This document shows, one piece after another, positions 1,311 through 31,479 of a stretch of DNA of 38,475 nt; positions within the stretch are counted from its first letter, which is position 1; the number at the start of each line of letters is the position of its first letter. The translations under genes were made by a program, and so were the position numbers. The notes beneath the pieces were generated by a model that was not told where the DNA came from, did no database searches, and saw nothing but the letters and a program-made list of their open reading frames with translations. This stretch comes from an uncultured bacterium (GTDB lineage Bacteria; Actinomycetota; Thermoleophilia; Gaiellales; F1-60-MAGs149). The stretch is taken from assembly GCA_963923625.1 (NCBI GenBank), contig CAWUMZ010000002.1, forward strand, positions 1 through 38,475. Direction: 5' to 3'.

Positions 1311-2389
1311 CAGCCCTTCGGCAGATAGTCGTTCGTCCAGGCCTGCGACCAGTCCGGCTTGGTCGTCAGCGCCTTGCCGTCGGCATCGGTCAGCAGCTTG
1401 TTGTCGTACAGGTAGTCGTAGAACGTCGCGACCCGCGCGCCGTCGATCGCGCCGAAGGCATCGGCCTCGTCGCTGTAGTACCCATCCTTCGCCAGCAGCT
1501 CGGCGCTGCGCTTGACGATCTCCGGGTTCTTCAGCGTCTGCGGATTGGCCTTGACGAGCAGCGCCGCCGCCTCGTCCGGGTGCTTCGCCGCGTACGCGTA
1601 ACCCCGCTGCGTCGCGGCCAGGAAGCGCCGCGCGACATCGGGGTTCGCCGTCAGCCACGCGTTGCTCGAGATGATCGTCGTCGAGTAGTTGCTCGGATAG
1701 CCGTAGTCGGCGGGATCGAAGTACTTCATCGGCTTGCCGAGCACCTCGGCCTCCACGCCCTCCCAGCTCGACGCCGAGATCGTGAAGTCGGCCCGGCCGC
1801 CGTAGACGGCCTGGTACGCGGCCGAGTCGAGGACCACCTTCTTGAAGTCGCCCGTGCCGCCGTCGGCCTTGATCACGGATGCCACCTCGGACTCCTCGCT
1901 CGGCGTGCCGAATCCGGCGTACGTCTTGCCGTCGAGGTCCTTCGGGCGCGTGATGCTCGGGTCGTCGGCGCGGTACGCGAGCAGGTACTGCTGCTTGCCG
2001 ATGCCGGCGAAGACCTGCACCACGTCGAGCCCGGCTGCGCGGGCGAAGGCGATGCCGTTCGAGTACGAGAACCCGAAGTCGGCGTCGCCGTTGGCGACGA
2101 GCGTCTCCGGCGCGGTCGTCGCGTACGGCAGGAGCTTCACCGTCAGCCCCTCGTCCGCGTAGTAGCCGAGCTCCTGCGCCACGTACACGCCGATGTGGTT
2201 CGTGTTCGGCGTCCAGTCGAGCGCGACCGAGACCTCGGCCGGCGCGACGGCGTCCGTCGACGCGGCCCCGGTCGCGGACTGCGAACTCGAGGCAGCACCT
2301 CCACCGCAGGCGGCGGCTACCAGCGCGACGACGCCGACGATCGCACCCAGGGCGAGAGGTCGGAGGCGAGCGGCGGGCGAGGTGGTCAT
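1310..2389 (-). CDS. ABC transporter substrate-binding lipoprotein, NMT1/THI5-like (ThiY-like, candidate HMP/thiamine-precursor binding)
   Basis: ORF 1310..2458 trimmed to ATG 2389 (MTTSPAARLRPLALGAIVGVVALVAAACGG, signal peptide plus lipobox). The body has NMT1/THI5-like character (VALDWTPNTNHIGVYVAQELGYYADEGL). AAGGA lies 9 nt upstream of the start. Confidence 0.75.
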   Translation of the reverse strand: MTTSPAARLRPLALGAIVGVVALVAAACGGGAASSSQSATGAASTDAVAPAEVSVALDWTPNTNHIGVYVAQELGYYADEGLTVKLLPYATTAPETLVANGDADFGFSYSNGIAFARAAGLDVVQVFAGIGKQQYLLAYRADDPSITRPKDLDGKTYAGFGTPSEESEVASVIKADGGTGDFKKVVLDSAAYQAVYGGRADFTISASSWEGVEAEVLGKPMKYFDPADYGYPSNYSTTIISSNAWLTANPDVARRFLAATQRGYAYAAKHPDEAAALLVKANPQTLKNPEIVKRSAELLAKDGYYSDEADAFGAIDGARVATFYDYLYDNKLLTDADGKALTTKPDWSQAWTNDYLPKG

Positions 2390-2447
2390 CAGGCGGGTCC
2401 TTGTGCGCGAAGGTCGGATACCAGCGGAGGGACGATACCGTTCCTCC

Positions 2448-3218
2448 ATGCGCCGCACCGCCCGCCTCGTGGTCCCACCGCTCGTCGTCGTGGTGCTCCT
2501 CGGCCTGATCTGGCAGCTCTACGCCGTGCACGGCTCGCTCGGCAACGACGTGCTGCCGTCCCCCTCGCGCGTGCTCAGCGCCGGCTGGGACGATCGCGCC
2601 TCGCTATGGGACAACACGCTGCCCACGCTGCGCGAGGTGGTGATCGGCTTCGCGATCTCGATCGTCTTCGCGTTCGCGCTCTCGATCCTGCTCGACGCAT
2701 CGGGCATCGCGCGGCGCTCGGTCATGCCCGTGCTGATCGGCAGCCAGACGATCCCGCTCGTCGTGCTCGCGCCGCTCGTCGTCATCTGGTTCGGCTTCGG
2801 CCTGACGCCGAAGATCCTGCTGGTCGCGCTGGTGACGTTCTTCCCGATCGTCGTCGGCCTCCTCGACGGCTACGCCTCGAGCGAACGCGACGCGGTGACG
2901 CTGCTGCGCACGATGGGCGCGAGCTGGCTCACGGTGTTCCGCGTCGTGCGCCTGCCCTCCGCGCTGCCGGGCTTCTTCACCGGCCTGCGCATCGCGATCA
3001 CCTACGCCGTCGTCGCCGCGATCTTCGCCGAGTACGCGGGCGCCGAGGCGGGCCTCGGCGTCTACATCCAGGGGGCGGGCAACTCGTTCCGCACCGATCT
3101 CGTACTCGCCGCCGTGCTCGTATCGGCGGTGCTCACGCTCGTGCTCTACGCGGCGACGTTCGTCGTGCAGCGTCTGGCGATCCCCTGGTACGCCGAGGCG
3201 CGGAGGGTCGAGCGATGA
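2448..3218 (+). CDS. ABC transporter permease (NitT/TauT family, ThiX-like)
   Basis: Real part of ORF 2193..3218 from MRRTARLVVPPLVVVVLLGLIW. Multi-TM protein with the EAA-like loop DGYASSERDAVTLLRTMGAS. The start is uncertain (GTG 2403 is an in-frame alternative). It is divergent from the binding-protein gene. Confidence 0.8.
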   Translation: MRRTARLVVPPLVVVVLLGLIWQLYAVHGSLGNDVLPSPSRVLSAGWDDRASLWDNTLPTLREVVIGFAISIVFAFALSILLDASGIARRSVMPVLIGSQTIPLVVLAPLVVIWFGFGLTPKILLVALVTFFPIVVGLLDGYASSERDAVTLLRTMGASWLTVFRVVRLPSALPGFFTGLRIAITYAVVAAIFAEYAGAEAGLGVYIQGAGNSFRTDLVLAAVLVSAVLTLVLYAATFVVQRLAIPWYAEARRVER

Positions 3219-3976
3219 GCGCGCCGGCGATCGAGCTGCGCGGCCTGTCGAAGGCCTTCGGCGACCTGCCGGTTCTCGAGAACCTGTCGCTGCACGTCGA
3301 GCGCGGCGAGTTCGTCTCGATCCTCGGGCCGAGCGGCTGCGGCAAGTCGACGATCCTGTCCGTCCTCAACGGCACCGAGCCCGCGGATGGCGGCGAGGTG
3401 CTGCTCGACGGCCGGCCGCTCGAGCGCAACGCGAATCCGTTCGCGTGGATGCCGCAGAGCGACGTGCTGCTGCCCTGGCGCACCGTCGAGCAGAACGTCG
3501 CCCTCGGCGGCGAGGTGGCCGGCGGTCTCGATCGGCGCGAGGCCCGCGCGGCGGCGCGCACCCTGCTGCCGACCTTCGGTCTCGATGGCTTCGGCGACCA
3601 CCGCCCGTACCAGCTGTCGGGTGGCATGCGCCAGCGCGCGGCGCTCGCCCGCACCGTCGCGCAGGGGCGCGACATCCTGCTGCTCGACGAGCCGTTCGGT
3701 GCGCTCGACGCGCTCACCCGCACCGAGCTGCAGCTGTGGCTCGAGGGCATCTGGGAGCGCGACCGCTGGACCGTGGTGCTGATCACCCACGACGTGCGCG
3801 AGGCGGTGCTGCTGTCGGATCGCATCTACGTGCTCGGACCGCGCGCCACCGGCATCGCGCTCGAGCTCGACGTGCCGCTGCCTCGCCCGCGCACCGTGGA
3901 CGTGATCGGCGACCCCGCCGCCGCGGCGCTGGAGCGCGAGCTGCTCCACGCGCTGCACGCCGGCCGCACGGCCTGA
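3215..3976 (+). CDS. ABC transporter ATP-binding protein (ThiZ-like)
   Basis: 253 aa at the tail of artefact ORF 1079..3976. Walker A GPSGCGKST, signature LSGGMRQR, Walker B LLLDEPFGALD. ATGA overlap with the permease stop. Confidence 0.9.
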   Translation: MSAPAIELRGLSKAFGDLPVLENLSLHVERGEFVSILGPSGCGKSTILSVLNGTEPADGGEVLLDGRPLERNANPFAWMPQSDVLLPWRTVEQNVALGGEVAGGLDRREARAAARTLLPTFGLDGFGDHRPYQLSGGMRQRAALARTVAQGRDILLLDEPFGALDALTRTELQLWLEGIWERDRWTVVLITHDVREAVLLSDRIYVLGPRATGIALELDVPLPRPRTVDVIGDPAAAALERELLHALHAGRTA

Positions 3977-4020: not shown

Positions 4021-4866
4021 ATGAGCAGCCTCCAGCCCACCTCCGTCGTCTATCCCGGCTCGGCCGGCTCGTACACGTCCGAGGCCGCGGATCGGCTCTA
4101 TCCAGCCATCGAGGCGACGTCAGCGGGCTCGTTCGCCGACGTCTACGCCGCCGTGGGCGACGGCACCGCGGAGATCGGCGTCCTGCCGATCGAGAACACC
4201 CTCGCCGGCATCGTGGCCGACACCTGCGACCTGATCGCCGACGGCTCGCTGCCGATCGTGGACGAGACGATCATCCACATCCCGCACTGCCTCGCCGGCG
4301 TGCCGGGCGCGACGACGGCCGGCATCACCACGATCCACTCGCATCCCGTTGCCCTCGCCCAGTGCCGCACGTTTCTCGACGACCGCTTCGAGCAGCGCGC
4401 CGCCGGCACGACCGCCGACGCCGCGCGGATCGTCGCCGAGCTCGGCGATCCGACGTGCGCGGCGATCGCCTCGCCCGCGGCCGCGCATCGCTACGGCCTC
4501 GAGGTGCTCGAGCTCGACATCTCGGACCACCCGGAGAACATGACGCGCTTCATCGCCATCGCGCGCGAGCCGCTGCCGTTCGCCGAGGGCGTGTCGTGGA
4601 AGACCGCGCTGCGGGTCGTCACCGGCCACCAGCCCGGCGCACTGCATGACGCGATCGAGCCGCTGCGGTACCACGGCGTCAACATGCTGAGCCTGCACTC
4701 GCGCCCGATTCCGGGCGAGCCGTGGCGCTACCAGTTCCTGATTGACATCGAGGGTCACCGCGACGATCCGCGCATCGAGCGCGCGCTCGCCGACGTCGCC
4801 AGCCGCTCGGCGCTGCTCGTCGTGCTCGGCTCGTTCCCCGCCGCTTCGCATCCCGACGCGCCATGA
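4021..4866 (+). CDS. pheA: prephenate dehydratase
   Basis: 281 aa from MSSLQPTSVVYPGSAGSYT. PDT domain with TRF (NMTRFIAI) followed by an ACT domain with the SRP...W.Y.F.ID.EGH motif (LHSRPIPGEPWRYQFLIDIEGH). Confidence 0.9.
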   Translation: MSSLQPTSVVYPGSAGSYTSEAADRLYPAIEATSAGSFADVYAAVGDGTAEIGVLPIENTLAGIVADTCDLIADGSLPIVDETIIHIPHCLAGVPGATTAGITTIHSHPVALAQCRTFLDDRFEQRAAGTTADAARIVAELGDPTCAAIASPAAAHRYGLEVLELDISDHPENMTRFIAIAREPLPFAEGVSWKTALRVVTGHQPGALHDAIEPLRYHGVNMLSLHSRPIPGEPWRYQFLIDIEGHRDDPRIERALADVASRSALLVVLGSFPAASHPDAP

Positions 4867-7118
4867 GCCCGCGGGCGTCGTGGGATGCGGCGCTCGAACT
4901 CGGCGCGCCGCCCGATGACCGCCTCGTCTTCCGCGGCGAGCAGCCCGCCTCGGCCGGCACCTCGGCACCGCTGCCCGCGGACCTGCCGCCGCAGCTGACG
5001 GCCGCGCTCGAGCGCAGCGGCCTCACGTCGCTCTGGGCGCACCAGGCCGAGGCGATCGCCCTCGCCCGCCGCGGCGACCACGTAGGCATCACATCCGGCA
5101 CGGCCAGCGGCAAGACGCTCGCCTACACCGTGCCGGTGCTCGAAACGCTGCTGACGGAGTCGCACGCCCGCGCGCTGTATCTCTCCCCGACCAAGGCGCT
5201 CGCACAGGACCAGGCGCGCCGCCTGCACGCGCTCGGCCTCGGGCGCGACCTGCGCGTCTCGCTCGTCGACGGCGACGGGGACACCGCCGGTCGCCGCCGC
5301 GCGCGCGTCGAGTCGAATCTCGTGCTGAGCAACCCCGACATGGTCCACGTCGGCATCTGCCCGCACCATCACCGCTGGGACGAGTGGCTGTCGGGCCTGA
5401 GCGCGATCATCATCGACGAGGCGCACGTCTACCGCGGGGTGTTCGGCAGCCATGTCGCGCACGTGATCCGCCGGCTGCGCCGCTGCGCCGCGCTGTACGG
5501 CGCCTCGCCGCAGCTGCTGCTCGCCTCGGCCACCGTCGGCAATCCCCAGCAGGCGTTCAGCGCGCTCACGGGCGTCGACGTGACGGTCGTCGACGACGAC
5601 GGCGCACCGAGCCCCGGTCGCGACGTCGCCCTGTGGAACCCGACCCTTCTGGACGAGGCGACGGGCCAGCGCGCGTCGCGCATCCACGAGACCGTCAACC
5701 TCGTCGCCCAGCTGGTCTGCGACGACCAGCGCGTCATCTGCTTCGCACCCGGCCGCCAGCTCGTCGAGCTGATCCTGCGCGGCGTGCGCGAGGAGCTGAC
5801 GCGCCGCAAGCCCGCATTCGCAGAGCGCGTCGAGCCGTACCGCGCGGGCTATCCGCCCGAGGTGCGGCGCCAGATCGAGCAGCGCCTCGCCGGCGGCGAG
5901 CTGCGCGCCGTGATCGCCACGAACGCGCTCGAGCTCGGCATCGACATCGGCGACCTCGACTGCGCCGTCGTCGTCGGGTTCCCCGGCTCGGTCGCGGCCC
6001 TGCGCCAGGAGTGGGGTCGCGCCGGCCGTCGCCAGCGCGGGCTCGGCGTGCTGGTCCTCGGCGACGACGCGCTCGACCAGTGGTTCGCCCGACATCCGCA
6101 GGCGCTGCTCGATCGCCCGGTCGAGGCGATCGCGCTCGATCCGAACAACCCCGAGATCCGTATCGCCCACCTCGCCTGCGCCGCGGCCGAGGCGGCCGTC
6201 TCACCACGCGACGAGAGCATCCTCGGCGTGCACATCACCGAGGACGCCGAGGCGATGGTGCAGCTGAACCCCGATGACTTCGCGATGACGCCGGCCGGAC
6301 TGATCTGGACCGGTCTCGACGATCCCGCGACGCGCGTGTCCTTGCGCAGTTCCGGCACGGAGGCCGTGACGATCGTCGACACGGAGACCGGCAACGTCCT
6401 CGGCGACGTCGAGCAGGATCGAGCACCGCGCAGCCTGCATCCCGGCGCCGTGCACCTCAACCTCGGCGAGCGCTACCTCGTCACGTCGCTCGATCTCAAG
6501 GAGGGCACCGCGCTTGTCGAGCCGTTCCGCGGCGACTGGTTCACCGTGCCGCGTGCCGAGTCGACCGTCGCCCTCGACGAGCCGGAAGCCGAGGAGTGGC
6601 TCGGCAACTGGCGCTGCCACCTCGGCGAGGCCGAGATCGCGACGCGCGTGACGGGCTATCAGCGCCGCCGCACCGACGACCTGTCCGTGATCGACAGCCG
6701 CACGCTCGACCTGCCCGAGCGCCGCTACCGCAGCGCCGCGCTGTGGCTCACGCGCCCGCCGACGAACGACGAGCCGACGCTCGGCGGCCTCCACGCGATC
6801 GAGCACCTGCTCGCCGCGGCCCTGCCGCTCGCCGTCCCGAGCGACGCCGGCGACATCAGCGGCCTGTCGACCGTCCTCCACCCCGACACGATGTCACCGA
6901 CGATCATCCTCCACGAGACGCGCCCGGGCGGCGCGGGCATCGTCCGCACCGCCTTCCCCGCCCTCATGCGCATCGTCGAGGCGGCCCGTTCGATCGTCGC
7001 CGACTGCCCGTGCGCGACGGGCTGCCCCGCCTGCATCCAGTCGTTCTCCTGCCCGTCGCTGAACGAGCCGCTCGACAAGGCGATGGCGCTCGTGCTGCTC
7101 GCCGAGATCGTCGCTTGA
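4863..7118 (+). CDS. DEAD/DEAH-box helicase with C-terminal DUF1998 zinc module (MrfA/YprA-like)
   Basis: 751 aa. Motif I TSGTASGKT, motif II IIDEAH, SAT, motif VI QEWGRAGRR. C-terminal Cys cluster CPCATGCPACIQSFSC is typical of DUF1998. ATGA overlap with the pheA stop. Confidence 0.85.
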   Translation: MSPRASWDAALELGAPPDDRLVFRGEQPASAGTSAPLPADLPPQLTAALERSGLTSLWAHQAEAIALARRGDHVGITSGTASGKTLAYTVPVLETLLTESHARALYLSPTKALAQDQARRLHALGLGRDLRVSLVDGDGDTAGRRRARVESNLVLSNPDMVHVGICPHHHRWDEWLSGLSAIIIDEAHVYRGVFGSHVAHVIRRLRRCAALYGASPQLLLASATVGNPQQAFSALTGVDVTVVDDDGAPSPGRDVALWNPTLLDEATGQRASRIHETVNLVAQLVCDDQRVICFAPGRQLVELILRGVREELTRRKPAFAERVEPYRAGYPPEVRRQIEQRLAGGELRAVIATNALELGIDIGDLDCAVVVGFPGSVAALRQEWGRAGRRQRGLGVLVLGDDALDQWFARHPQALLDRPVEAIALDPNNPEIRIAHLACAAAEAAVSPRDESILGVHITEDAEAMVQLNPDDFAMTPAGLIWTGLDDPATRVSLRSSGTEAVTIVDTETGNVLGDVEQDRAPRSLHPGAVHLNLGERYLVTSLDLKEGTALVEPFRGDWFTVPRAESTVALDEPEAEEWLGNWRCHLGEAEIATRVTGYQRRRTDDLSVIDSRTLDLPERRYRSAALWLTRPPTNDEPTLGGLHAIEHLLAAALPLAVPSDAGDISGLSTVLHPDTMSPTIILHETRPGGAGIVRTAFPALMRIVEAARSIVADCPCATGCPACIQSFSCPSLNEPLDKAMALVLLAEIVA

Positions 7119-7158: not shown

Positions 7159-7189
7159 TGAAGCAACGGGGCCAGACCCCTTTGCTTCA
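7159..7189 (-). terminator. AT-rich hairpin overlapping the ggt-family stop codon (right half of an inverted hairpin pair)
   Basis: TGAAGCAACGGGG-ccaga-CCCCTTTGCTTCA, 12 of 13 stem positions pair. It is 26/31 identical to the reverse complement of 7119..7149. The two are separated by ACCTAGGTG. Confidence 0.5.
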
Positions 7190-8695
7190 CCAGGCGCCGG
7201 CCCACGATTCGCGCCGCGGGTCGGCCCAGGCCGAGACGAGGCCGCTCGTGCGGTTGAACTCCGCGGCGACGACGCTGCCGAACAGGCCGCCGCCCGACTC
7301 GGACAGGACGATCTCGTGGCCCAGGTCGCGCAGCGCGTCGGCGAGAGCCGAATCCAGATCCTCCTCGATGTGCAGCTCGCCATCGGTGATGCGCCAGCGA
7401 GGGCGCTCGATCGCGAGGCCCATGTCCTCGCCCTCGTCGAGATGCGCGAGCAGCACCTGCAGAAGCGCCTGCACCTGGCCATCGGCGCTCGGCGTGGAGA
7501 TGCCGACCACGCGCTCGCCGTCGATCACCATCGCGGGCGACAGCGTGTGGACCGGGCGCTTGCCGCCCGCGGGCGCGTTCGGCGACTCGGGGTCGCGCGA
7601 GAACGAGAGCAGGCGGTCGTTGAGGAAGAAGCCGCCTTCAGGCACCCACGTGGCGCTGCCGAAGCTGTCGAAGACGCTGATCAGCATCGACACGACCGTG
7701 CCGTCTCGGTCGGCGACGGTGACCGACGTCGTGTGGTTGTAGCCCTGCGCGTGGTCGGCGCGGCTCGCGCGGTCGGCGATCGCGATCGAGTCGGCGAGCG
7801 CCATCAGCTCGTCGTCGGCACCAGGCTGGGTGATGCGATCGCGGAACGCGAAGGCGCCGGCCATCGCCTCGATCGCGCGATGGTGCGCGACCGGCGACGC
7901 GTCGGAGGCGGGCTCCGCCGTGAGGCGTCGCAGCGCCATCGTCAGCAGCATCGCCTGCGAGGAGGGCGGCTGGGCGAGCACCGTCACGCCGCGGTAGTCG
8001 GTCGCCACTGGCGCCCGCACGACGCTCGTATGCGCGGCGAGATCCTCGAGCGACATCGCACCGCCCTCGCGGGCGATGGCGCGCACGATCGCCTCGGCGA
8101 TCGGCCCGTTGTAGAACGCGGTGGGCCCGCCCTCGATGACTGCGCGCAGCGTCGCCGCGGTCTCGGGCAGCCGGACGATCGTGCCGACGCCCTGCGGACG
8201 CGCCTGCACCCACGGCGAAATATCCGCCCCACCGCGCGTGAGGCGCGGCGCCATCTCCTCGAGGGCGTCCTGCGTGTCACGGGTGATCGCCACGCCGTGC
8301 TCAGCCAGCTCGAGCGCGGGCGCGAGCACCTCGGCGCGCGACAGCACGCCGGCCTGCTCGATCAGATCGCACACGCCCGCCACGAAGCCCGGCACGGCCA
8401 CGACCTGCGCACCGTCGAGCGGCAGCGGCGCCTCGAGCGCCGCCGGAGCCGCGCCGACGCCGTTGATCGCGAACGTCGAGCCGTCGGGGCGGCGCACGAT
8501 GCAGAGCAGGTCGCCGCCGAGGCCGCAGGCGTCGGGCAGGATCACCGTCAGCGCCGCAGCTGCGGCAGCCGCGGCATCGGCAGCGTTGCCGCCGGCAGCG
8601 CCGACGCGCAGCGCGGCCTGGACGGCGAGAGGATGGCCGCACGCGACGGCCAGATGCTGGCCTTCGATGCGAGGGCGGGGCAGGCGCTTGGACAT
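7187..8695 (-). CDS. ggt: gamma-glutamyltransferase family protein (Ntn hydrolase), no obvious signal peptide
   Basis: ORF 7187..8815 trimmed to ATG 8695 (MSKRLPRPRIEGQHLAVACGHPLAV). GGT-like blocks LGGDLLCIV, the autoprocessing Thr region GYNHTTSVTV, and KRPVHTLSPAMV. Confidence 0.8.
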   Translation of the reverse strand: MSKRLPRPRIEGQHLAVACGHPLAVQAALRVGAAGGNAADAAAAAAAALTVILPDACGLGGDLLCIVRRPDGSTFAINGVGAAPAALEAPLPLDGAQVVAVPGFVAGVCDLIEQAGVLSRAEVLAPALELAEHGVAITRDTQDALEEMAPRLTRGGADISPWVQARPQGVGTIVRLPETAATLRAVIEGGPTAFYNGPIAEAIVRAIAREGGAMSLEDLAAHTSVVRAPVATDYRGVTVLAQPPSSQAMLLTMALRRLTAEPASDASPVAHHRAIEAMAGAFAFRDRITQPGADDELMALADSIAIADRASRADHAQGYNHTTSVTVADRDGTVVSMLISVFDSFGSATWVPEGGFFLNDRLLSFSRDPESPNAPAGGKRPVHTLSPAMVIDGERVVGISTPSADGQVQALLQVLLAHLDEGEDMGLAIERPRWRITDGELHIEEDLDSALADALRDLGHEIVLSESGGGLFGSVVAAEFNRTSGLVSAWADPRRESWAGAW

Positions 8696-8711
8696 GGCGC
8701 GAGCATGGCAC

Positions 8712-8921
8712 ATCGCGTCTGCTACCGTCGTCTGCGGAGAACGGGGAAGTCCGGTGCGAATCCGGCACGGTCCCGCCGCTGTGAGGAACGTCCGCTCGTC
8801 GCGGTGCAGCAGCACCGGTCACTGGGTCCCCGGACCTGGGAAGGCAAGACGATCGGCCTCGGCAACGAGGAAGCGCGTTCCGAGTCAGAACACCCGCCTC
8901 CGACCGGGCGATCCCGCCCGG
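8712..8921 (+). promoter_or_regulatory. cobalamin (B12) riboswitch with a downstream GC hairpin
   Basis: Core elements read in order: GGGAAGTCCGGTGCGAATCCGGCACGGTCCCGCCGCTGTGA (8743-8783), GTCACTGGG...CTGGGAAGGC (8818-8844), and the B12 box GAGTCAGAACACCCGCC (8882-8898). A hairpin CCGGGCG-atcc-CGCCCGG follows at 8904-8921. It lies 30 nt upstream of the first ORF, which has an AGAAGGA Shine-Dalgarno sequence. Confidence 0.85.
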
Positions 8922-8950
8922 ACAATCCTCGAGAGAAGGACGTACCCCCC

Positions 8951-9610
8951 ATGCGAACGAGGCAGATCCTCGTGGCCGCCGCCGTCGGCGTTGTCGCCCT
9001 CATCCCCGCCACCGCTGCGAGCGCGGCGACCCTCCGCGTCGTCTCGGACGCGAAGAACGTCTTCGGCGAGACCGCCACGACCGTCACCAGCGCGACGTCG
9101 TACATCGACTCGAAGGGCAAGACCCACAAGCTGGCCGCCAACACCGCGATGGGCCAGATCGTCGAGACCGGCCTCCCCTATACCGCCGTCTACGACGCCA
9201 GCTACAACGCCGCATACCTGACGCGCATTGTCGGCGCCAAGGCGCCCGCGACGGGCTACTGGGCGTTCTACGTGAACGACGCGCCGTCGACGCTCGGCGC
9301 GACCGACGCGAAGCTGAAGACCACGGACGAGGTCGTCTGGATCGTCGACAACGACTACTCCAACGCCAACGGCCCGTTCGCCTATGACCTGAACACGAAG
9401 GTCAATGGCGACGGCACCGTCACCTTCACGGCGATGCGCTTCGGCGCGAACAAGGCGATCGCCGCCGGCGGCGCGCCCCTGCTCGTCAACGGCGTGAAGG
9501 CGGCGAACTTCGACGCGAAGGGCAGGCTGACGCTGCCCCTCTCGACCGGGTGGACGGCGCAGATCCCCGCCAAGGGGAAGATCGCGCCGTCCGAGATCGT
9601 CGCCGGCTAG
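8951..9610 (+). CDS. secreted DUF4430-like protein (transcobalamin beta-domain-like) with an extra C-terminal domain
   Basis: 219 aa at the tail of artefact ORF 6596..9610. Sec signal MRTRQILVAAAVGVVALIPATAASA. DUF4430-type block TAMGQIVETGLPYTAVYDASYNAAYLTRIVG...GYWAFYVNDAPSTLGATDAKLKTTDEVVWIV. First gene after the B12 riboswitch. Confidence 0.7.
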   Translation: MRTRQILVAAAVGVVALIPATAASAATLRVVSDAKNVFGETATTVTSATSYIDSKGKTHKLAANTAMGQIVETGLPYTAVYDASYNAAYLTRIVGAKAPATGYWAFYVNDAPSTLGATDAKLKTTDEVVWIVDNDYSNANGPFAYDLNTKVNGDGTVTFTAMRFGANKAIAAGGAPLLVNGVKAANFDAKGRLTLPLSTGWTAQIPAKGKIAPSEIVAG

Positions 9611-9612
9611 CG

Positions 9613-10500
9613 ATGCGGCGGGTCGTGCCCGCACTCCTCATCGCCGCGCTCGTCGCGGCGTGCGGCACATCGAAGACGCAGCCCCCGGCGCCGACCGCGC
9701 CGGGGGTTCGCGTCAGCGCGACCGCTGACTGGGGAACGACCCGCATCGCCGCCGGCCGCGGCAATCCCGGCACGGTGATCGACGCGACGCGCTCCATCGC
9801 CAAGGTGACGACGTCCTACGGTGGCCGCTACGTCGCGGGCATCGCCGGCCAGGCCGGAGATGGATCCCGCGATTGGATCTTCTGGATCAACGGCATCGAG
9901 GCGCCGGCGGGTGCGGCCGATACCCGGATCGCCGCAGGCGATCGCGTCTGGTGGGACCTCCACCGCTGGGCCGGTCGCGTCCACGTTCCGGCCGTCATCG
10001 CCGACTGGCCGATGCCACTGACGCGTGGCGTCGCAGGAGCGACCTCGAACGTCTCGGCGGACCCACCCCTCGCCGCCGCATTGCAGGCTGTCGGCGTGCG
10101 GGTCGTCCAGCCCGCGGCCACGCACGGCGCCAGGGCGATCGTCGGCGGCAGCGCCGAGCTGAGCCGTCGCGACCCACTGTGGCGTCGCGCCCTCGGCGAT
10201 CCCGCGGCCGCCGGGCTGACCGCCTGGATCGACAAGGCCGGGCACGTGCGGGTGTGGAACGCCGCGTCGGGTCGGGCCGACGCCGTCCCCGGCGCGGTCG
10301 CCGTGATCGTCGCGACGACCGATGGCTACGCCGCGACCGACCCTCCGGTCGTCATCGTCGCCGGCGTCACCCAGGCCGCCGCAGACGCCGCCGCGCAGTC
10401 GCTCGCACAGCATCCCGCGATCGTCCGGAACGCCACGGCCATCTGCCTCGACGCGGCCGGCAGCGTCGTCTGCCGCGGCGGTACGGGTCGCATCTCGTGA
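9613..10500 (+). CDS. DUF4430-like lipoprotein
   Basis: 295 aa from MRRVVPALLIAALVAACGTSK (lipobox VAAC). DUF4430-type block GRYVAGIAGQAGDGSRDWIFWINGIEAPAGAADTRIAAGDRVWWDL, followed by an unassigned A-rich C-terminal region. Confidence 0.65.
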   Translation: MRRVVPALLIAALVAACGTSKTQPPAPTAPGVRVSATADWGTTRIAAGRGNPGTVIDATRSIAKVTTSYGGRYVAGIAGQAGDGSRDWIFWINGIEAPAGAADTRIAAGDRVWWDLHRWAGRVHVPAVIADWPMPLTRGVAGATSNVSADPPLAAALQAVGVRVVQPAATHGARAIVGGSAELSRRDPLWRRALGDPAAAGLTAWIDKAGHVRVWNAASGRADAVPGAVAVIVATTDGYAATDPPVVIVAGVTQAAADAAAQSLAQHPAIVRNATAICLDAAGSVVCRGGTGRIS

Positions 10501-11336
10501 GGGCGCCACTGCCGCCCCTGCTCGTCGCGATCTCGTTGATCGTCGTCGCGCTCGCCACATCGCAGCCGCTGATCGTCGGCGCGGCGTTCGTCGGTGCGCT
10601 GCTGCTGCACCACGCAGCGCCGCCCCCGCACCGACTCATGCTGCGCGTCGCACTCGTGTCCGGGCTCTTCATCTTCCTGCTCAATCCGTTCGTGGCGGTC
10701 GAGGGCGATCACGTGCTGCTCAGCGGCCCGCACTTCCTCCTCTTCGACTTCGAGGTGACGAGCGAGGAGCTGCTCTACGGACTGGTGGCAGGCCTGCGGC
10801 TCGCCACGGCGATCCTCGCGACCTCGGCGTTCCTGCGCCTCGCCGACCCCGACCGCACGCAGGCGCTTGCAAGCCGCATCGTGCCGCGATCCGCTCTCAC
10901 CGTCGCGCTGGCAGCTCGGCTCGCACCCACGCTGCGACGCGACGCGACCGCCTTGCACGAGACGCTTCGCCTGCGAGGTTCAGGTCGCGCGCAAGGACGG
11001 CGAGCGGCGATCCGGCAGGGCGCCGTGCTGATAGAGCCGCTCGTGGCCTCCAGCCTCGAGCGCGGCGTCGACATCTCCGAGGCGATGGTCGCGCGTGGGT
11101 ACGGGGCGGGAACCATGACCCGCCTGCCCGAGCCGCCCGCAACGCGGGACGAGCGCATCGGGCTGGTGCTCGGCGCCGTCGGCTGCGTACTCGGCGTCGC
11201 CTTGATCCTCGGGCTCGCCCCCTACGCGATCTACCCGGTGGCCGACACGATCATCACCCCCATCGGCGTGATCATCGCGATCATCGTCCTCGTGCTCTCG
11301 GCGCTCGCCGCCGGCGCACTGCGGAGCCGCCCATGA
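10497..11336 (+). CDS. ecfT: ECF transporter transmembrane (T) component, CbiQ/EcfT family
   Basis: 279 aa from GTG 10497 (GTGA overlap with the upstream stop): VRAPLPPLLVAISLIVVALA. Multi-TM protein with the coupling motif region ERGVDISEAMVARGYG. Confidence 0.75.
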   Translation: MRAPLPPLLVAISLIVVALATSQPLIVGAAFVGALLLHHAAPPPHRLMLRVALVSGLFIFLLNPFVAVEGDHVLLSGPHFLLFDFEVTSEELLYGLVAGLRLATAILATSAFLRLADPDRTQALASRIVPRSALTVALAARLAPTLRRDATALHETLRLRGSGRAQGRRAAIRQGAVLIEPLVASSLERGVDISEAMVARGYGAGTMTRLPEPPATRDERIGLVLGAVGCVLGVALILGLAPYAIYPVADTIITPIGVIIAIIVLVLSALAAGALRSRP

Positions 11337-12700
11337 GCGCCATCGCGACCCACGACCTGCGCTATCGCTACGCGCCCGATTCGCCGTGGGCGCTGGACGG
11401 TGTGACGCTGGACGTGGCGCCGGGCGAGATCGTCCTGCTGCAGGGGGAGTCCGGCAGCGGCAAGTCGACGCTGCTGCGCGTGCTCGCCGGTCTGGCGCCC
11501 GCCTTCCACGGCGGAGAGGCTGGCGGCCGCGGCACCGTCGGCGGTCTGGAGCTCCGCTCTGCGGAGCCGGCGCAGCTCGCCCAGCGCGTGGGCTTCCTGT
11601 TCCAGGACCCCGAGACGCAGGCCGTGATGGCGGAGCCGGTGCGCGACGTGGCCTTCAGCCTCCAGTGCCACGGCCAGCCCGCCGAGACGATCCTGCCCGC
11701 CGCTCGCGCCGCACTGACGCGCATCCGGTCGGAGAACCTCGCCGGCCGGCGCATCGATCAGCTGTCGAGCGGCGAGCGCCAGCGCGTCGCGCTCGCCGCC
11801 GTCCTGGCCCCGGAGCCGTCCGTCCTGCTGCTCGACGAGCCCACCGCGCAGCTCGACGACGACACCGCCTGCGAGCTCGTCGGCGAACTGCGTCGCCTCG
11901 CCGATGCCGGCCTCGCCATCGTGATCGCCGAGCACCGCCACGATCGCGTGGGGCACCTGACCGATCGCGTCGTCGGCATGCACGCGGGCCGCCTTCGGGC
12001 TGCCACGGCGCATGCGCCGCTCTCCGCGCTGACGACCTCGGCAGGCGGAGCACCACTGCTTGCCGTCGACGGACTCGTCGTCCCCCGTGGAGAGCGCACG
12101 GTGCTGCGCGGCGCAACCGCCGTGCTTCCGGCGGGCGGCGTCGCCGCACTGATCGGCCCCAACGGCGGCGGCAAGAGCACCTTGCTGCGCACGCTCGCCG
12201 GGCTGGAGCTGCCGACCGCGGGCACGACCGCGCTTGCGGGCGACGACATCACCTCCACACCCGTCGAGGCGCGCGTGCCGCGCATCGCGTTCGTGCCCCA
12301 GGATCCGGGCCGACGCCTGCTGTGCGAGACCGTGCACGACGAGGTGCTGCTGGGTCCGCGCACCACCGGCCTCGACGCTCGGCCGGCGGAGCGGGCGATC
12401 GCCGAGCTGGATCTCTCGCACCTGCTCGGCCGCCATCCCCGCGACTGCTCGGTCGGCGAGCGGGAACGCGTCGCGATCGCGGCGGCGCTCGCCCTCGATC
12501 CGCAGGTGCTGCTGCTCGATGAGCCCACGCGCGGCATGGATCCCGGACACCGCGCCGCGCTCGTGACGACCGTGCGCGAACACGCGGCCCGCGGCGGCTG
12601 CGCCATCGTCGCCACGCACGACCTCGAGCTGGCCCGCGCCTGCGCCGATCGGCGCTGGGAGCTGGTCGACGGACGCATCGACGAGACGGTGATCGCGTGA
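11333..12700 (+). CDS. fused ECF/ABC ATPase with two nucleotide-binding domains (EcfA1-EcfA2/CbiO-like)
   Basis: 455 aa from MSAIATHDLRYRY. NBD1 has GESGSGKST, LSSGERQR, LLLDEPTAQLD. NBD2 has GPNGGGKST, CSVGERER, LLLDEPTRGMD. ATGA overlap upstream and GTGA overlap downstream. Confidence 0.9.
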   Translation: MSAIATHDLRYRYAPDSPWALDGVTLDVAPGEIVLLQGESGSGKSTLLRVLAGLAPAFHGGEAGGRGTVGGLELRSAEPAQLAQRVGFLFQDPETQAVMAEPVRDVAFSLQCHGQPAETILPAARAALTRIRSENLAGRRIDQLSSGERQRVALAAVLAPEPSVLLLDEPTAQLDDDTACELVGELRRLADAGLAIVIAEHRHDRVGHLTDRVVGMHAGRLRAATAHAPLSALTTSAGGAPLLAVDGLVVPRGERTVLRGATAVLPAGGVAALIGPNGGGKSTLLRTLAGLELPTAGTTALAGDDITSTPVEARVPRIAFVPQDPGRRLLCETVHDEVLLGPRTTGLDARPAERAIAELDLSHLLGRHPRDCSVGERERVAIAAALALDPQVLLLDEPTRGMDPGHRAALVTTVREHAARGGCAIVATHDLELARACADRRWELVDGRIDETVIA

Positions 12701-13317
12701 GTCCGGCAGCCATCGTCGCCCTCGGCGGTCTCGTCGCCCTGGCGATCGGGCTCGTGCTCTACGAGCGCACGCGTGGCGGGGCGCGCGAGCTCGGCCTCGT
12801 CGCGGTACTCGCTGCTGCCGCGACGGCCGGACGCATCGCGTTCGCCGCCATTCCCAGCGCGCAGCCGGTCACCGCGATCGCGATCGTCACGGGCGTGGCG
12901 CTCGGCCCACGCGCCGGCGCAGCCGTCGGCGCCGGCGCCGCATTGCTGTCGAACACCTTCCTCGGCCAGGGGCCGTGGACGCCGTGGCAGATGCTCCTGT
13001 GGGGGCTGGCCGGCGCCAGCGGCGGGTGGCTCGCGCCGCTGCTGCGGCGCAGCCGCGTCGCCCTGATGGCGTTCGGCGGCGCCTGGGGACTCGTCTTCGG
13101 CGCCGGCATGGACGTGTGGCAGTTGGCCGCGTTCGGACCGGCGCTCACACTGCCTGCGTTCATCGCCGTGCACGCACGGGCCGTACCCTTCGACCTCGTG
13201 CACGCGCTCACGAATGTCATCCTGCTCGGCCTCGCCGGCATGCCGCTGATCGCCCTGCTCGATCGCAGCGCCCGCCGCATGCGCGGCCGCTGGCTGCCCG
13301 TGGAGGAGACCGAGTGA
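12697..13317 (+). CDS. ECF transporter substrate-capture (S) component, candidate cobalamin-specific (CbrT-like role)
   Basis: 206 aa, about 6 TM segments, G/A-rich helices (IAFAAIPSAQPVTAIAIVTGVALGPRAG...GQGPWTPWQMLLWGLAG). No CbiM-type N-terminus. Embedded in the ECF operon behind the B12 riboswitch. Confidence 0.6.
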   Translation: MSPAAIVALGGLVALAIGLVLYERTRGGARELGLVAVLAAAATAGRIAFAAIPSAQPVTAIAIVTGVALGPRAGAAVGAGAALLSNTFLGQGPWTPWQMLLWGLAGASGGWLAPLLRRSRVALMAFGGAWGLVFGAGMDVWQLAAFGPALTLPAFIAVHARAVPFDLVHALTNVILLGLAGMPLIALLDRSARRMRGRWLPVEETE

Positions 13318-14162
13318 TCCGCGCGCTCGCTATCGGCATCGCGCTGCTCGCACTCTCCGCACCGGCCCAGGCCGCGAACCTGTCGTCGGCAGGCGCGTAC
13401 CTCGCCGGCAGCCTCGACCGCAACGGCTGCGCGCACGAGCCCGGCAGCACCCCGACGGCGAACCTCAGCGCCTGGGTCGCCTTCGGTCTCGTTGCCAGTG
13501 GGCGCAGCGCCAGCGGCCCGGCCGCGTGCATCGAGAAGCACGCGAGCTCGCTGAAGGCGCTCACCGACGTGGAGGTCGCGTCGCTCGCGCTGTCCGCTGC
13601 CGGTCGTGATCCCCGGCGGGCGGGCGGGCGCGACTTCGTGCAGGTGATCCAGTCGTCCCTTCGCGGCGGCCGCCTTGGCACGCTGGTCGCGACGAACCAG
13701 TTCGGCATCCTCGCGCTGAAGGCGGCCGGCGCACCGATTCCCGCGGCCGCCAAACGCACCCTGATCGCCGACCAGAACCCGGATGGCTCGTGGCCCGTCG
13801 CCGTCGGCGGCGATGGCGACTCGAATCTGACCGCCACGGGCATCCAGGCTGCGATCGCGGCCGGCATCGCGCCGACGGATCCGATCATCGCGCGCGCGGT
13901 CAAAGCGCTCGGGCGATTCCGCAGCCGGGGCGGCTACACCCTCAGCGCCGGCTCGCCACCCGACGCGCAATCAACGGCGTGGGTGCTCTCCGGCCTGGCG
14001 TCGGTGCATCGCGGCGACACGACGGCAATCGCGTACCTCGGCGGTCTGCAGGCGAGCAGCGGGGCCTTCGCCTACCAGCGTGGCCTCTCGATCACGCCAG
14101 TGTGGGTGACGGCGCAGTCCGCCATGGGCATCGCCGGCCGCAGCTTCCCGCTGCGCCCGTGA
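13314..14162 (+). CDS. secreted alpha/alpha-toroid repeat protein (prenyltransferase/squalene-cyclase-like repeats)
   Basis: 282 aa from GTG 13314 (GTGA overlap): VIRALAIGIALLALSAPAQA signal. Repeats of the QxxDGSW type (ADQNPDGSWPV, RSRGGYTLS, LQASSGAFAYQ), each followed by an aromatic or small-residue helix (STAWVLSGL, VWVTAQSAMGI). Confidence 0.6.
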   Translation: MIRALAIGIALLALSAPAQAANLSSAGAYLAGSLDRNGCAHEPGSTPTANLSAWVAFGLVASGRSASGPAACIEKHASSLKALTDVEVASLALSAAGRDPRRAGGRDFVQVIQSSLRGGRLGTLVATNQFGILALKAAGAPIPAAAKRTLIADQNPDGSWPVAVGGDGDSNLTATGIQAAIAAGIAPTDPIIARAVKALGRFRSRGGYTLSAGSPPDAQSTAWVLSGLASVHRGDTTAIAYLGGLQASSGAFAYQRGLSITPVWVTAQSAMGIAGRSFPLRP

Positions 14163-21696: not shown

Positions 21697-27289
<5,593 letters not shown>

Positions 27290-27293
<4 letters not shown>

Positions 27294-28351
27294 ACGTGCA
27301 CCTCGAGCGCGTGGACCGTGTCCGCGAGATCATCGACGCCGTCGGCGCCGGTCGCCGTCAGCAGCACCTGGCCGTGCCGACGGCCCAGCTCGATCAGCCG
27401 CGTGCGACGGTCGCGGTCGAGCTCCGAGAGGACGTCGTCGAGCAGCAGGAGCGGCGGCTCACCCCGCGTCTCCGCGATCAGCGCGGCCTGCGCGAGCAGG
27501 AACGCGAGCACCAGCGTTCGCTGCTCGCCCTGCGACGCGCTGCGACGTGCGTCACGCCCGCCCAGCTCGACGACGAGATCGTCGAGGTGCGGGCCGACGC
27601 CGGTGGTCTGCCGCTCGATGTCCTCACGGCGGCGCTGCCGCAGTGCGGCGAGGAGCGCCTGACCGTCGCCCGGCTCGGAGGCCTCGTAGCGAAGCCCGCC
27701 CGGATGCGGTGAGCCGAGCAGTTCGACGCGCTCCGCGAAGAACGGCGCCAGGCGCTCGATCAGGCGCTCGCGCGCCTCGGTGATCAGCGCTCCGTGATCG
27801 GCGAGCTGCGCGTCCCAGGGATCGAGCTCATCCTCGGTCCCCTCGCGGCGGCGCACTCGGCGCAGCACGGCGTTGCGCTGCTCCATCGTCTGCCGGTAGG
27901 CCCGCTCGTGCTCCTCGAAGCGCGGCCAGGCACCCTCGATCGCGCGATCCATCGCAACGCGCCGGACACTCGGCCCTCGCTTGACCAGGTCGAGCACGTC
28001 GGGGATGAAGACCACCGACGCCCAGCGCTCCCGCAGCGTGCGGCCGTCCACCTGCACACCATCGAGCTCCAACGTGCGCGAACCCTTGGTGAGACGGACC
28101 CGCGTCGTCGAGGCCGCACTGCCGGCCTCGCCTTCGACCCGCACGCCGAGCTCGTCGACGCCGTCGCGGATCATCCGGCTGTCGGCCGTCGGCCGCAGGC
28201 CCGTCCCACCCGTGCCGAGGTGCACCGCCTCGAGCAGCGACGTCTTGCCCGAGCCATTCGGCCCGACGATCGCGGTGACGCCCTCGACCGGTCGCAGCTC
28301 AGCCGCCGCATGGCAGCGCAGGTCGGCGACCCGGAGCAGGTCGACGCGCAT
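27290..28351 (-). CDS. recF: DNA replication and repair protein RecF
   Basis: 353 aa. Walker A GPNGSGKTS, signature SQGEQRTL, Walker B LLLLDDVLSELD. Confidence 0.95.
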
Positions 28352-28355
28352 CGAC

Positions 28356-29456
28356 TCAGATGCGGATCGGCATGATCACGTACCAGAACGCGCCGTCGAC
28401 GCTCTCGAGCAGCGCGGGCCGCAGCGACGAGATCAGGCTCAGCTTCACCTCGTCGCCCGGGACGCTCTCGATGCCGTCGCGGAGGAATTCGTGGTTGAAG
28501 CCGATCTCGATCGTCTCCGTCCCGGTGGCGGCGACCGGGATCGACTCGGCGCCCTCGGCGACGTCGGCCGTGCGGGCCTGGAGGCTCAGCTGCCCCGGTC
28601 CGAGCTCGACGCGAACCGGCGTGTTCTGCCGGACGACGATGCCCACGCGACGGACGATCTCGAGCAGCTCGTCCTTCGCGATCGTCGCCGACTGCTCGAC
28701 GCCGTCGGGCTTGAGCGCGGTGAAGTTCGGGAACTGCCCTTCGATGCGGCGGACGCTCAGCCAGATGCCGTCGATGCCGAAGGTGACCAGCCCCTCGCCG
28801 ATCGCGACGCTGAGCGTCCCGGCACCGCCGCCGATGCGGACGGCCTCCTCGAGCGCCTTGATCGGGATGATCGCCTCGAGCGCCTCCGGCGGCGCCTTGG
28901 TCAGCGGCGCCTCGGCGACGGCCAGGCGGTACGAGTCGGTGGCCGCCATGGTGATGCGGTCGGACTCGAAGCGCACCAGGGCGCCGGTCAGGACCGGGCG
29001 GCTCTCGTCGCGCGATGCCGCGCGCTTGACGCGACCGACGACGTCGGCGAAGACGGCGCTGTCGGTCTCGAAGACCTGCTCGTGATCGATCTCGGGCAGC
29101 TGGGGAAACTCATCGACCGGCAGGCCGTACAGCGTGTAGGACGACGAGCCTGCGGAGACCAGGACGCGGCCGTCGGCCTCGGCCGCGAGCTCGATCGTCT
29201 CACCGCTCAGCGCGCGGATCAGCTCGGGCGCGATCTTCGCCGGCAGCAGCACCGAGCCCGGCTGCTCGACATCGGCGTCGAGCGGGACGCGCAGCGTCAT
29301 CTCGAGATCGGTGGCCGCGAGCTCGACGGGCGTCTCCGAGCTCTCGGCGGTGAGGCGCACGTGCGCGGCGCTCTGGAGGTTGGCGCGCGTCGACGCGGCA
29401 CGCGCAGCCTGCGCGAGGCGATCTGCGAGGTGCTCTCGATTGCAGCGGATCTTCAT
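28356..29456 (-). CDS. dnaN: DNA polymerase III subunit beta (sliding clamp)
   Basis: 366 aa (MKIRCNREHLADRLAQAARAAS...). Three-domain clamp length and the canonical position downstream of dnaA. Confidence 0.93.
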   Translation of the reverse strand: MKIRCNREHLADRLAQAARAASTRANLQSAAHVRLTAESSETPVELAATDLEMTLRVPLDADVEQPGSVLLPAKIAPELIRALSGETIELAAEADGRVLVSAGSSSYTLYGLPVDEFPQLPEIDHEQVFETDSAVFADVVGRVKRAASRDESRPVLTGALVRFESDRITMAATDSYRLAVAEAPLTKAPPEALEAIIPIKALEEAVRIGGGAGTLSVAIGEGLVTFGIDGIWLSVRRIEGQFPNFTALKPDGVEQSATIAKDELLEIVRRVGIVVRQNTPVRVELGPGQLSLQARTADVAEGAESIPVAATGTETIEIGFNHEFLRDGIESVPGDEVKLSLISSLRPALLESVDGAFWYVIMPIRI

Positions 29457-29470
29457 GCAGCGGCCATCCC

Positions 29471-29520
29471 GATGATGGAGGTTGTTGTAAGAGAAGTTCT
29501 CAGGTAGTTATCACCATAGG
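29471..29520. other. AT-rich patch, candidate DNA-unwinding element of oriC
   Basis: GATGATGGAGGTTGTTGTAAGAGAAGTTCTCAGGTAGTTATCACCATAGG is the most AT-rich stretch I see in the window. It lies in the dnaA-dnaN spacer and is immediately followed by DnaA-box-like 9-mers. Confidence 0.45.
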
Positions 29521-29720
29521 GGCTGGGGATGACGGGGAGAAGTCGCGTCAAGGCCGGTGCAGCCTGAGGAAACGGCAGGTCGCGGCTGGGGACGGCGTGG
29601 GTGGCATACGGCGCTGCGTCCCCAACGATCGGAATCGTCCGGAACGGAGGGTCGACAACCGGGGACAACGTCCGCGCCGATCCCATGCGGATACCCCGCT
29701 GCTCCCCTGCGCCATCCCCA
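29508..29720. promoter_or_regulatory. cluster of DnaA-box-like 9-mers in the dnaA-dnaN spacer (candidate oriC)
   Basis: TTATCACCA 29508-16 (+), TCATCCCCA 29524-32 (-), CCGTCCCCA 29587-95 (-), GCGTCCCCA 29616-24 (+), TTGTCCCCG 29660-68 (-), CCATCCCCA 29712-20 (+). Confidence 0.55.
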
Positions 29721-29730
29721 GCGGCGCAGC

Positions 29731-31128: not shown

Positions 31129-31227
31129 GCTCGAAGGCGCGACGGTAGCAGGGCGGCGGGTGCCGGGTGAACCACACCCCGACCGCCGATTTCCGCTGTT
31201 TGCGGGAAAAACAAACCGCTCCCAGCG

Positions 31228-31260
31228 TTATCCCCAAGGTCATCCCCAGCAGGGGACAAC
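31228..31260. promoter_or_regulatory. array of three DnaA boxes between dnaA and rpmH
   Basis: TTATCCCCA (31228-36, +), agg, TCATCCCCA (31240-48, +), gc, AGGGGACAA (31251-59, which is TTGTCCCCT on the minus strand). The first two are phased 12 bp apart. A weaker TGAACCACA lies at 31168-76. Confidence 0.6.
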
Positions 31261-31287
31261 CCGGCGCACGGGCGTGACGGTTCCCGT

Positions 31288-31317
31288 TTGCCGCAGTCCG
31301 CATGCGACCGGTATGCT
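31288..31317 (+). promoter_or_regulatory. candidate housekeeping-sigma promoter for rpmH
   Basis: TTGCCG (31288-93), an 18-nt spacer, then TATGCT (31312-17), 28 nt upstream of the rpmH ATG. Motif match only. Confidence 0.3.
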
Positions 31318-31344
31318 TCGCGCTCCCCGGAGACCGGAACCAGC

Positions 31345-31479
31345 ATGAAGCGCACCTACCAGCCCAACGTCCGCAAGCGAGCCAAGACCCACGGCTTCCG
31401 CAAGCGCATGTCGAATCGCGCCGGCCAGGCGGTTGTCCGCCGCCGCCGCGCCCGCGGCCGCAAGCGCCTCTCGGCCTAG
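31345..31479 (+). CDS. rpmH: 50S ribosomal protein L34
   Basis: 44 aa [44 protein letters not shown]. The track ORF from 31288 carries a spurious N-terminal extension. Confidence 0.97.

Follow-up and report, generated by a model that had tools for sequence, protein, structure and literature searches.

The 38,475-nucleotide stretch of contig CAWUMZ010000002.1 (assembly GCA_963923625.1), which derives from an uncultured bacterium of the Gaiellales and is referred to here as the window, carries an operon of six genes, designated o1 to o6, that lies behind a cobalamin riboswitch. The operon very likely encodes an energy-coupling factor (ECF) importer that is repressed by vitamin B12, resembles ECF-CbrT and carries corrinoids. 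The overall picture, that of a dedicated ECF cobalamin or corrinoid importer with an extracellular capture stage, is considered probable, while the capture role of the accessory proteins, taken by itself, is about evenly balanced. The original prediction, made from the sequence alone, had proposed that a split transcobalamin, with alpha-like and beta-like parts on separate polypeptides, captures B12 outside the cell and feeds it to an ECF transporter. The importer under a B12 riboswitch, the exported beta-like DUF4430 proteins and the exported toroid of that proposal were all borne out, and natural fusions between the parts were found in addition, but the likeness of the toroid to transcobalamin did not extend beyond the fold.

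The presence of a cobalamin riboswitch ahead of the six open reading frames (ORFs) was confirmed with Rfam. The aptamer (RF00174, 8717-8897, + strand) scored 66.3 bits with cmscan, compared with a gathering score of 31.5 (E 2.2e-14), and was the sole regulatory RNA found by Rfam across the whole window. The B12 box, GAGTCAGAACACCCGCC, was located at 8882-8898. The leader that follows (8898-8950, + strand), which would contain the expression platform, has a GC-rich hairpin, CCGGGCG-ATCC-CGCCCGG, and a Shine-Dalgarno-like stretch, GAGAGAAGGA. The fold z-score of the leader was only -1.3, which is not significant, and no terminator-like site was found in it; the riboswitch may act on the initiation of translation.

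All six genes are on the + strand. The first, o1 (8951-9610), encodes a secreted DUF4430 protein of 219 residues, a transcobalamin-beta-like SLBB protein with a C-terminal beta-rich extension, and the second, o2 (9613-10500), encodes a DUF4430 lipoprotein of 295 residues. The next three genes specify the transporter proper, an ECF T component of the CbiQ family (o3, 10497-11336, 279 residues), a fused double ECF ATPase, A-A' (o4, 11333-12700, 455 residues), and a CbrT-family S component (o5, 12697-13317, 206 residues). The last gene, o6 (13314-14162), encodes an exported alpha/alpha toroid of 282 residues, an apparently non-catalytic member of the squalene-cyclase/prenyltransferase repeat superfamily. 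The junctions from o1 to o6 were exactly as first described, a gap of 2 nucleotides (9610/9613) followed by the overlaps GTGA, ATGA, GTGA and GTGA, and all six genes are predicted to be translationally coupled.

The assignment of the T component and of the fused ATPase was secure. Pfam CbiQ matched o3 with an E value of 1.8e-15, while the match to TIGR02454 (E 2.8e-12) was under the cut-off of that model. Two ABC_tran domains were found in o4 (E 2.3e-54), which also matched TIGR01166, cbiO, with 244 bits relative to a cut-off of 211.8. The S component had been described as one that lacks the CbiM N-terminus and was otherwise left unassigned. Pfam gave no CbiM match in o5, only weak matches to generic ECF S-component families that were under their cut-offs, but the protein could be assigned. 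Its best match among the PDB sequences was 6FNP_A (E 1.3e-10), with residues 28-194 of o5 aligned to residues 8-175 of the chain. The entry 6FNP corresponds to ECF-CbrT, which transports vitamin B12 in Lactobacillus delbrueckii; CbrT is the S component and carries both cobalamin and cobinamide (Santos et al. 2018, PMC5997447). When CbrT and o5 were aligned with 11 S components from related loci, the two proteins were 31% identical and 13 columns were invariant across the 13 sequences. A search for homologous proteins with a profile of the S component listed close relatives only, with none from the Firmicutes. The match to CbrT extends over nearly the full length, and o5 is thus a CbrT homologue rather than a member of an uncharacterised family; transport of cobalamin and cobinamide is predicted. 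Membership in a characterised family with another substrate would have counted against the B12 reading; the match was instead to a B12 S component. These sequence matches strongly support the view that o3 to o5 make up a core pump with the machinery already characterised in ECF-CbrT. A T component and a pair of ATPase domains are encoded beside the S component, which gives the operon the gene content of a group I, or dedicated, ECF system.

The two proteins at the head of the operon were confirmed as a Sec-secreted protein and a lipoprotein that each have a DUF4430 domain. Pfam DUF4430 (PF14478), which has a curated cut-off of 23.8 bits, was matched by o1 with 35.5 bits (E 1.4e-8) and by o2 with 38.5 bits (E 1.7e-9), and the two DUF4430 cores were 30% identical over 47 residues. 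A signal peptide (ASA/A) could be read from the sequence of o1. In o2 there was a lipobox, VAAC, of which C17 and G18 were invariant among 32 homologues. Searches of the PDB sequences with o1 and o2, either as a single sequence or as a profile, gave nothing useful, so that only structure comparison, made with the o2 model alone, tied o2 to transcobalamin. The AlphaFold model of o2 had a predicted local distance difference test (pLDDT) score of 89.6, and its N-terminal domain, approximately residues 30-125, matched 3u7z, 5no0, 5np4, 2bb5, 4kki and 2pmv with Foldseek probabilities of 0.98-1.0. The first of these is a bacterial DUF4430 structure, and 5no0 and 5np4 are the isolated beta domain of human transcobalamin in the apo and the cyanocobalamin-bound form, respectively. 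Full-length transcobalamin, haptocorrin and intrinsic factor were among the matches, and the template modelling (TM) scores, normalised to the isolated beta domains, were 0.56-0.68. The kinship with the beta domains of these three proteins that had been proposed for the DUF4430 proteins is thus upheld for o2, the model of which indicates a transcobalamin-beta-like domain.

The C-terminal half of o2 (approximately residues 140-295, window 10030-10500) forms a separate alpha/beta domain that was modelled with a pLDDT above 90. Foldseek found no convincing match for this domain in the PDB, only weak matches to BcsB and to a GH115 domain. The homologues of o2 keep the motif VPAV..WP.PL after the DUF4430 domain as well as two near-invariant cysteines, C278 and C287, and the motif recurs in distant loci.

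The identification of o6 as a secreted alpha/alpha toroid was confirmed in two ways. The AlphaFold model (pLDDT 94, predicted TM score 0.89) was confident and had 12 helices after the signal peptide (AQA/A), and a profile of the o6 family, built from 38 members, matched squalene-hopene cyclase (SHC) among the PDB sequences with an E value of 1.9e-23. In Pfam, o6 itself gave a weak match to SQHop_cyclase_N (23.3 bits, cut-off 26.2), and at E<=10 PF13249 was matched by 34 and PF13243 by 31 of the 38 members. The best Foldseek matches of o6 were single-domain class II terpene cyclases, drimenyl diphosphate synthase, MstE, the beta subunits of prenyltransferases and the hydrolase MmpH, with TM scores of 0.6-0.7 and identities of 12-18%. 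A tblastn search of plasmids gave no match to o6.

A conserved catalytic site of the cyclase or prenyltransferase kind, the finding that was to have overturned the proposed role of the toroid, did not emerge from the 38 members. No conserved DxDD motif was present in the family, and a single member, P0119, had DVDD. This sequence occurs at residue 181 of P0119 (locus L082), where the family has a near-invariant D-S-N-x(-T-A), and, being like the DxDD(TA) motif of the class II terpene cyclases, may reflect chance or be the relic of an enzymatic ancestor. The possibility that D-S-N-x-T-A is itself a degenerate DxDD(TA) was considered but is mentioned only in passing, since D-x-x-x-T-A recurs in several of the repeats and the best SHC alignment covers another repeat. 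From its sequence and model, o6 is best described as an exported, probably non-catalytic member of the cyclase/prenyltransferase repeat superfamily.

The relationship between the toroid and the other components was apparent from natural fusions. At a threshold of E<=1e-3, a hidden Markov model (HMM) search with the toroid profile recovered 16,356 cluster representatives, of which 968 also passed E<=1e-30, and the best 150 were scanned with local HMMs for their domain architecture. Solo toroids accounted for 84 of these and proteins with two to five toroid copies for another 21. A CbrT-like S component, in many cases full-length, preceded the toroid in 41, so that toroid and S component form one covalent chain in roughly a quarter of these 150 clusters, and a DUF4430 domain preceded the toroid in four. 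For a subset, Pfam confirmed ECF S-component families as well as DUF6580 and DUF4430. One of the fusions to the S component, P0104 (494 residues), is collinear with o5 (42% identity, residues 13-204) and then with o6 (34% identity, residues 213-494), with the signal peptide of o6 aligned to the linker helix, and it is encoded by a continuous ORF that follows CbiQ and the double ATPase on its contig. The fusions to the S component indicate that the toroid would work in contact with it on the outer face of the membrane, and those to DUF4430 show, as judged from domain architecture, that the two domains can probably act within one chain, as they do in transcobalamin. Together, the two kinds of fusion support a functional link between the parts. 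The search also recovered giant relatives of the toroid (P0303, P0304, P0309, P0315 and others), 870-1786 residues in length, with three to five tandem toroid domains.

The gene order and the riboswitch proved to be conserved throughout the Thermoleophilia. At least 580 loci encode a relative of o6 in a scan of one genome per species, and the best 80 of these all belong to Thermoleophilia-type actinobacterial metagenome-assembled genomes (MAGs) except for two, which are probably mis-binned. In tblastn comparisons with the six proteins, the order DUF4430 (one or two copies)-T-AA-S-toroid was found at each locus whose flanks were long enough to show it, including those in which the identity to o6 falls to 34%. 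In the distant loci L012, L042 and L061, Pfam confirmed two DUF4430 proteins, of which the first is secreted and the second is a lipoprotein with the same motif after the domain. Rfam placed RF00174 upstream of the operon in nine of nine loci tested, and an nhmmer profile made from the Rfam instances placed a riboswitch upstream in 63 of 83. The remaining 20 loci are on contigs that end upstream of the operon, and the riboswitch was therefore present in all 63 informative loci. The conservation of order and riboswitch is far beyond chance expectation, and ligand-dependent control of the operon is predicted from the upstream position of the riboswitch in each of the informative loci.

Some variation was seen among the loci. 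In those of the Solirubrobacterales and Thermoleophilaceae, the first gene or genes after the riboswitch were larger or more numerous. L061 has a secreted protein of approximately 600 residues with a DUF4430 domain and a CarboxypepD_reg-like domain (1985-3796), and L024 has two secreted proteins ahead of the lipoprotein (2380-3797), so the number of capture proteins would vary between lineages. The two outlying loci, L030 and L043, have the full Thermoleophilia-type operon in MAGs labelled 'Bifidobacterium breve', from a lake sample, and 'Pseudomonadota bacterium', and the L030 proteins are 53-82% identical to those of the window; it is these two contigs that were probably mis-binned.

These observations suggest the following mechanism. 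The B12 riboswitch would turn the group I ECF importer off when the coenzyme is sufficient. The three exported proteins would constitute a capture and delivery stage outside the membrane, in which o1, free and either diffusible or associated with the wall, and o2, anchored by its lipid, may bind corrinoid via their DUF4430 domains. The toroid would adjoin the S component, to which it is joined in many relatives by one extra transmembrane helix, and is probably the docking partner, with the corrinoid sandwiched between toroid and DUF4430 domain as in transcobalamin, or else a landing platform. The corrinoid would then be handed to CbrT in a step energised by T and AA'. The binding of corrinoid by o1, o2 and o6, the contact between toroid and DUF4430 and the hand-off to CbrT are thus predictions from sequences and models.

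Several observations weigh against this interpretation, 1) Cobalamin_bind (PF01122) was matched by none of the 38 members of the toroid family, even at E<=10, 2) no cobalamin-binding chain, whether transcobalamin, intrinsic factor or haptocorrin, was found with the toroid-family profile among the PDB sequences at E<=10, 3) no chain of these three proteins was present among the best 50 Foldseek matches listed for o6, 4) no Cys or His column was conserved at 70% or more in the toroid family, which leaves no conserved candidate for a cobalt ligand, 5) the expression platform, in view of its fold z-score and the lack of a terminator-like site, is a candidate only, 6) the characterised ECF-CbrT complex consists of four subunits, and no accessory protein is named for it (PMC5997447), so that the extra proteins are not needed for transport as such, 7) the sole operon with the same parts that has been studied experimentally, lsa1836-1840 of L. 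sakei, was tied to heme uptake (bioRxiv 10.1101/864751) and 8) SLBB domains of other families bind polysaccharides (Burroughs, Balaji, Iyer and Aravind 2007, PMC1796856). On the first three of these grounds no kinship of the toroid with the transcobalamin alpha domain is supported; as modelled, o6 shares with transcobalamin no more than its overall fold, the alpha6/alpha6 toroid.

The main rival explanation, which is considered unlikely, is that the accessory proteins bind no substrate. In that case the role of the toroid would be to stabilise, position or regulate the S component, that of the DUF4430 proteins would be to anchor the complex on polysaccharide of the wall or envelope, and B12 would be captured by CbrT alone. 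The competence of ECF-CbrT without accessory proteins (PMC5997447) is what this explanation leads one to expect, as is the absence of a conserved metal-ligating residue from the toroid, and the frequent fusions between S component and toroid attest to proximity, not to ligand binding. Other SLBB members, ComEA and the polysaccharide export proteins, are thought to bind polysaccharides (PMC1796856), and Ig-like and CarboxypepD_reg domains accompany some of the proteins described here. However, Pfam assigns the DUF4430 domain to the transcobalamin-like clade, not to the polysaccharide clade, and the best structural matches of the DUF4430 domain of o2 are beta domains that bind B12. Moreover, the fusions of DUF4430 to the toroid, which are also described in the 2007 paper (PMC1796856), recreate the architecture of transcobalamin, and the three accessory genes lie behind a B12 riboswitch and appear to be translationally coupled to the transporter genes.

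It is distinctly improbable that the operon imports heme or another non-corrin tetrapyrrole, as was proposed for Lsa1836-1840. The L. sakei operon is made up of five kinds of parts that are also present here; its deletion impaired the accumulation of heme and complementation restored it (bioRxiv 10.1101/864751), but a cobalamin riboswitch was present in every informative locus of the family described here, the S component is closest to a transporter of cobalamin and cobinamide, and no heme-related gene was found in the window. A still smaller likelihood attaches to the toroid being an extracellular enzyme, of the terpene-cyclase, prenyltransferase or glycoside-hydrolase type, with a corrinoid derivative, a lipid or the cell wall as its substrate. 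The class II terpene cyclases, the prenyltransferase beta subunits and MmpH are its best matches in sequence and structure, but DxDD is not conserved (DVDD in one of 38 members), there is no conserved Cys or His for a zinc site, the protein is exported and so removed from prenyl diphosphate substrates, and in many lineages it is fused to an ECF S component. Import of cobalt for the synthesis of B12, after the manner of the riboswitch-controlled CbiMNQO, is equally remote: cobalt transporters are commonly under B12 riboswitches, and the T and A components match models named for cobalt transport, CbiQ and cbiO, but these names are applied generically to the ECF T and A families. In addition, the S component gave no match to CbiM and is homologous to CbrT, and the accessory proteins have B12 binders as their relatives rather than CbiN or NikK/L.

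The six-gene unit is flanked by genes on the opposite strand, one for a gamma-glutamyltranspeptidase upstream and accA/accD downstream, and it therefore forms a self-contained operon. If the divergent gamma-glutamyltranspeptidase gene is read as its longest ORF (7187-8815, - strand), it would overlap the riboswitch aptamer in the region 8692-8818. The Pfam match to this protein starts only at residue 74 of the stop-to-stop translation, so the true start is probably further downstream, which would leave the riboswitch intergenic. A DEAD/DEAH helicase gene at 4746-7118 (+ strand), whose product has a C-terminal MrfA zinc-binding domain (MrfA/Hrq1-like), is unrelated to the B12 operon. The chromosomal replication-origin region occupies 21697-36195 of the window, with gyrA, gyrB, recF, dnaN and dnaA on the - strand (21.7-31.2 kb) and yidC, a Jag/KhpB-like gene, gidB/rsmG, parA and parB on the + strand (32.0-36.2 kb); dnaA is approximately 15 kb away from the B12 operon. 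The G+C content of the window is 71%, and the closest relatives of its DNA are freshwater and soil MAGs of the Thermoleophilia and Gaiellales.

ECF transporters are not generally known to rely on extracytoplasmic substrate-binding proteins. The family described here may be an exception, and it is tentatively suggested, as a possibility somewhat short of even, that a toroid docked on CbrT and the free and lipid-anchored beta-like proteins together make up a bacterial 'transcobalamin' of several chains, which would bind scarce corrinoids and load the S component. If this is correct, the 'heme' system of L. sakei needs to be re-examined along with many operons like it, and the toppling model of S components must allow for a large ectodomain on a tether. 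Little B12 is available in fresh water and soil, many bacteria depend on scavenging it, and the capture of B12 ahead of transport has barely been studied in cells of the Gram-positive type. The family offers candidate extracellular corrinoid binders, validated by a riboswitch and attached to a known B12 pump, and the natural fusions of S component and toroid could be produced as single proteins for structural studies. The family also gives regulatory grounds for supposing that corrinoids are handled by operons built in this way, which bears on the heme assignment in L. sakei. The value of the system lies in its being a good test case for extracytoplasmic substrate capture in ECF transport and not in the discovery of the principle.

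The arrangement had been thought to be functionally undescribed, a claim that did not survive comparison with the literature. Burroughs et al. 2007 (PMC1796856) defined a transcobalamin-like clade of the SLBB beta-grasp superfamily, the bacterial members of which are secreted or on the surface and are commonly joined, on either side, to an alpha/alpha toroid. The genes are often in operons with a second SLBB paralogue, a CbiO-like ATPase and a CbiQ-like membrane protein, in genomes that usually lack B12 synthesis, and scavenging of B12 or its precursors was proposed. These operons thus have exported beta-like domains, toroid partners, a second SLBB paralogue and CbiO/CbiQ genes in common with that of the window. 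The emphasis of that study is on fused SLBB-toroid proteins from low-GC Gram-positives and archaea, whereas in the Thermoleophilia hosts of the present family the toroid is a protein of its own or, in relatives, part of one chain with the S component; the sections of the paper that were available make no mention of a riboswitch, a CbrT-type S component or S-toroid fusions (PMC1796856).

Verplaetse et al. 2019 (bioRxiv 10.1101/864751) tested such an operon genetically, for heme. The L. sakei genes lsa1836-1840 encode an S component, an AA' fusion, a T component and a pair of exported transcobalamin-like subunits, beta and alpha, the latter of which also resembles geranylgeranyltransferase, and the operon had been automatically annotated as a cobalamin transporter. 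The parts list is the same as in the window, with separate exported beta-like and toroid or alpha-like proteins, but the order is S-AA-T-beta-alpha in L. sakei and beta-beta-T-AA-S-alpha here, and L. sakei has a single beta-like protein where there are two here, of which one is a lipoprotein that has an additional domain. The riboswitch that is present here is not mentioned in the L. sakei paper, the L. sakei phenotype is heme uptake, and the likeness of the two operons is one of parts as described.

ECF-CbrT of L. delbrueckii shares with the system of the window a homologous S component and an ECF-type ABC importer with a T component and two ATPase domains. It differs in that its general ECF module is encoded elsewhere and shared with other S components, whereas here the module is dedicated and the ATPases are fused, and in that it was characterised without accessory proteins, while here riboswitch control and three co-encoded exported proteins are added (PMC5997447). 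The cbrT gene of L. delbrueckii is within an nrdJ-cbrS-cbrT-pduO cluster, in which cbrS was left unexplained (PMC5997447); cbrS may encode an accessory protein like those described here. Roles such as 'additional lipoprotein component of predicted cobalamin ECF transporter' appear to exist in SEED. No link between CbrT and transcobalamin-like accessory proteins was found in the papers that were searched.

The animal proteins transcobalamin, intrinsic factor and haptocorrin likewise combine an alpha/alpha toroid with a beta-grasp domain of the DUF4430 type, and it is their beta domains that o2 matches. They are, however, single polypeptides of the Cobalamin_bind family that serve receptor-mediated endocytosis, whereas here the toroid is separate and close to the membrane and the partner is an ECF transporter. 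Extra components that help to load the S component also occur in the group I metal ECF operons, namely CbiN and NikK/NikL, but their substrates are metal ions, not corrinoids, and they are unrelated in sequence and fold to the accessory proteins described here. A split transcobalamin that feeds an ECF transporter therefore matches a published model, and the idea is not new. Compared with this literature, including Burroughs et al. to the extent of its available sections, what is new here is the conserved B12 riboswitch, the CbrT homologue as S component, the widespread fusions of S component and toroid, the extra domain of the lipoprotein and the Thermoleophilia host.

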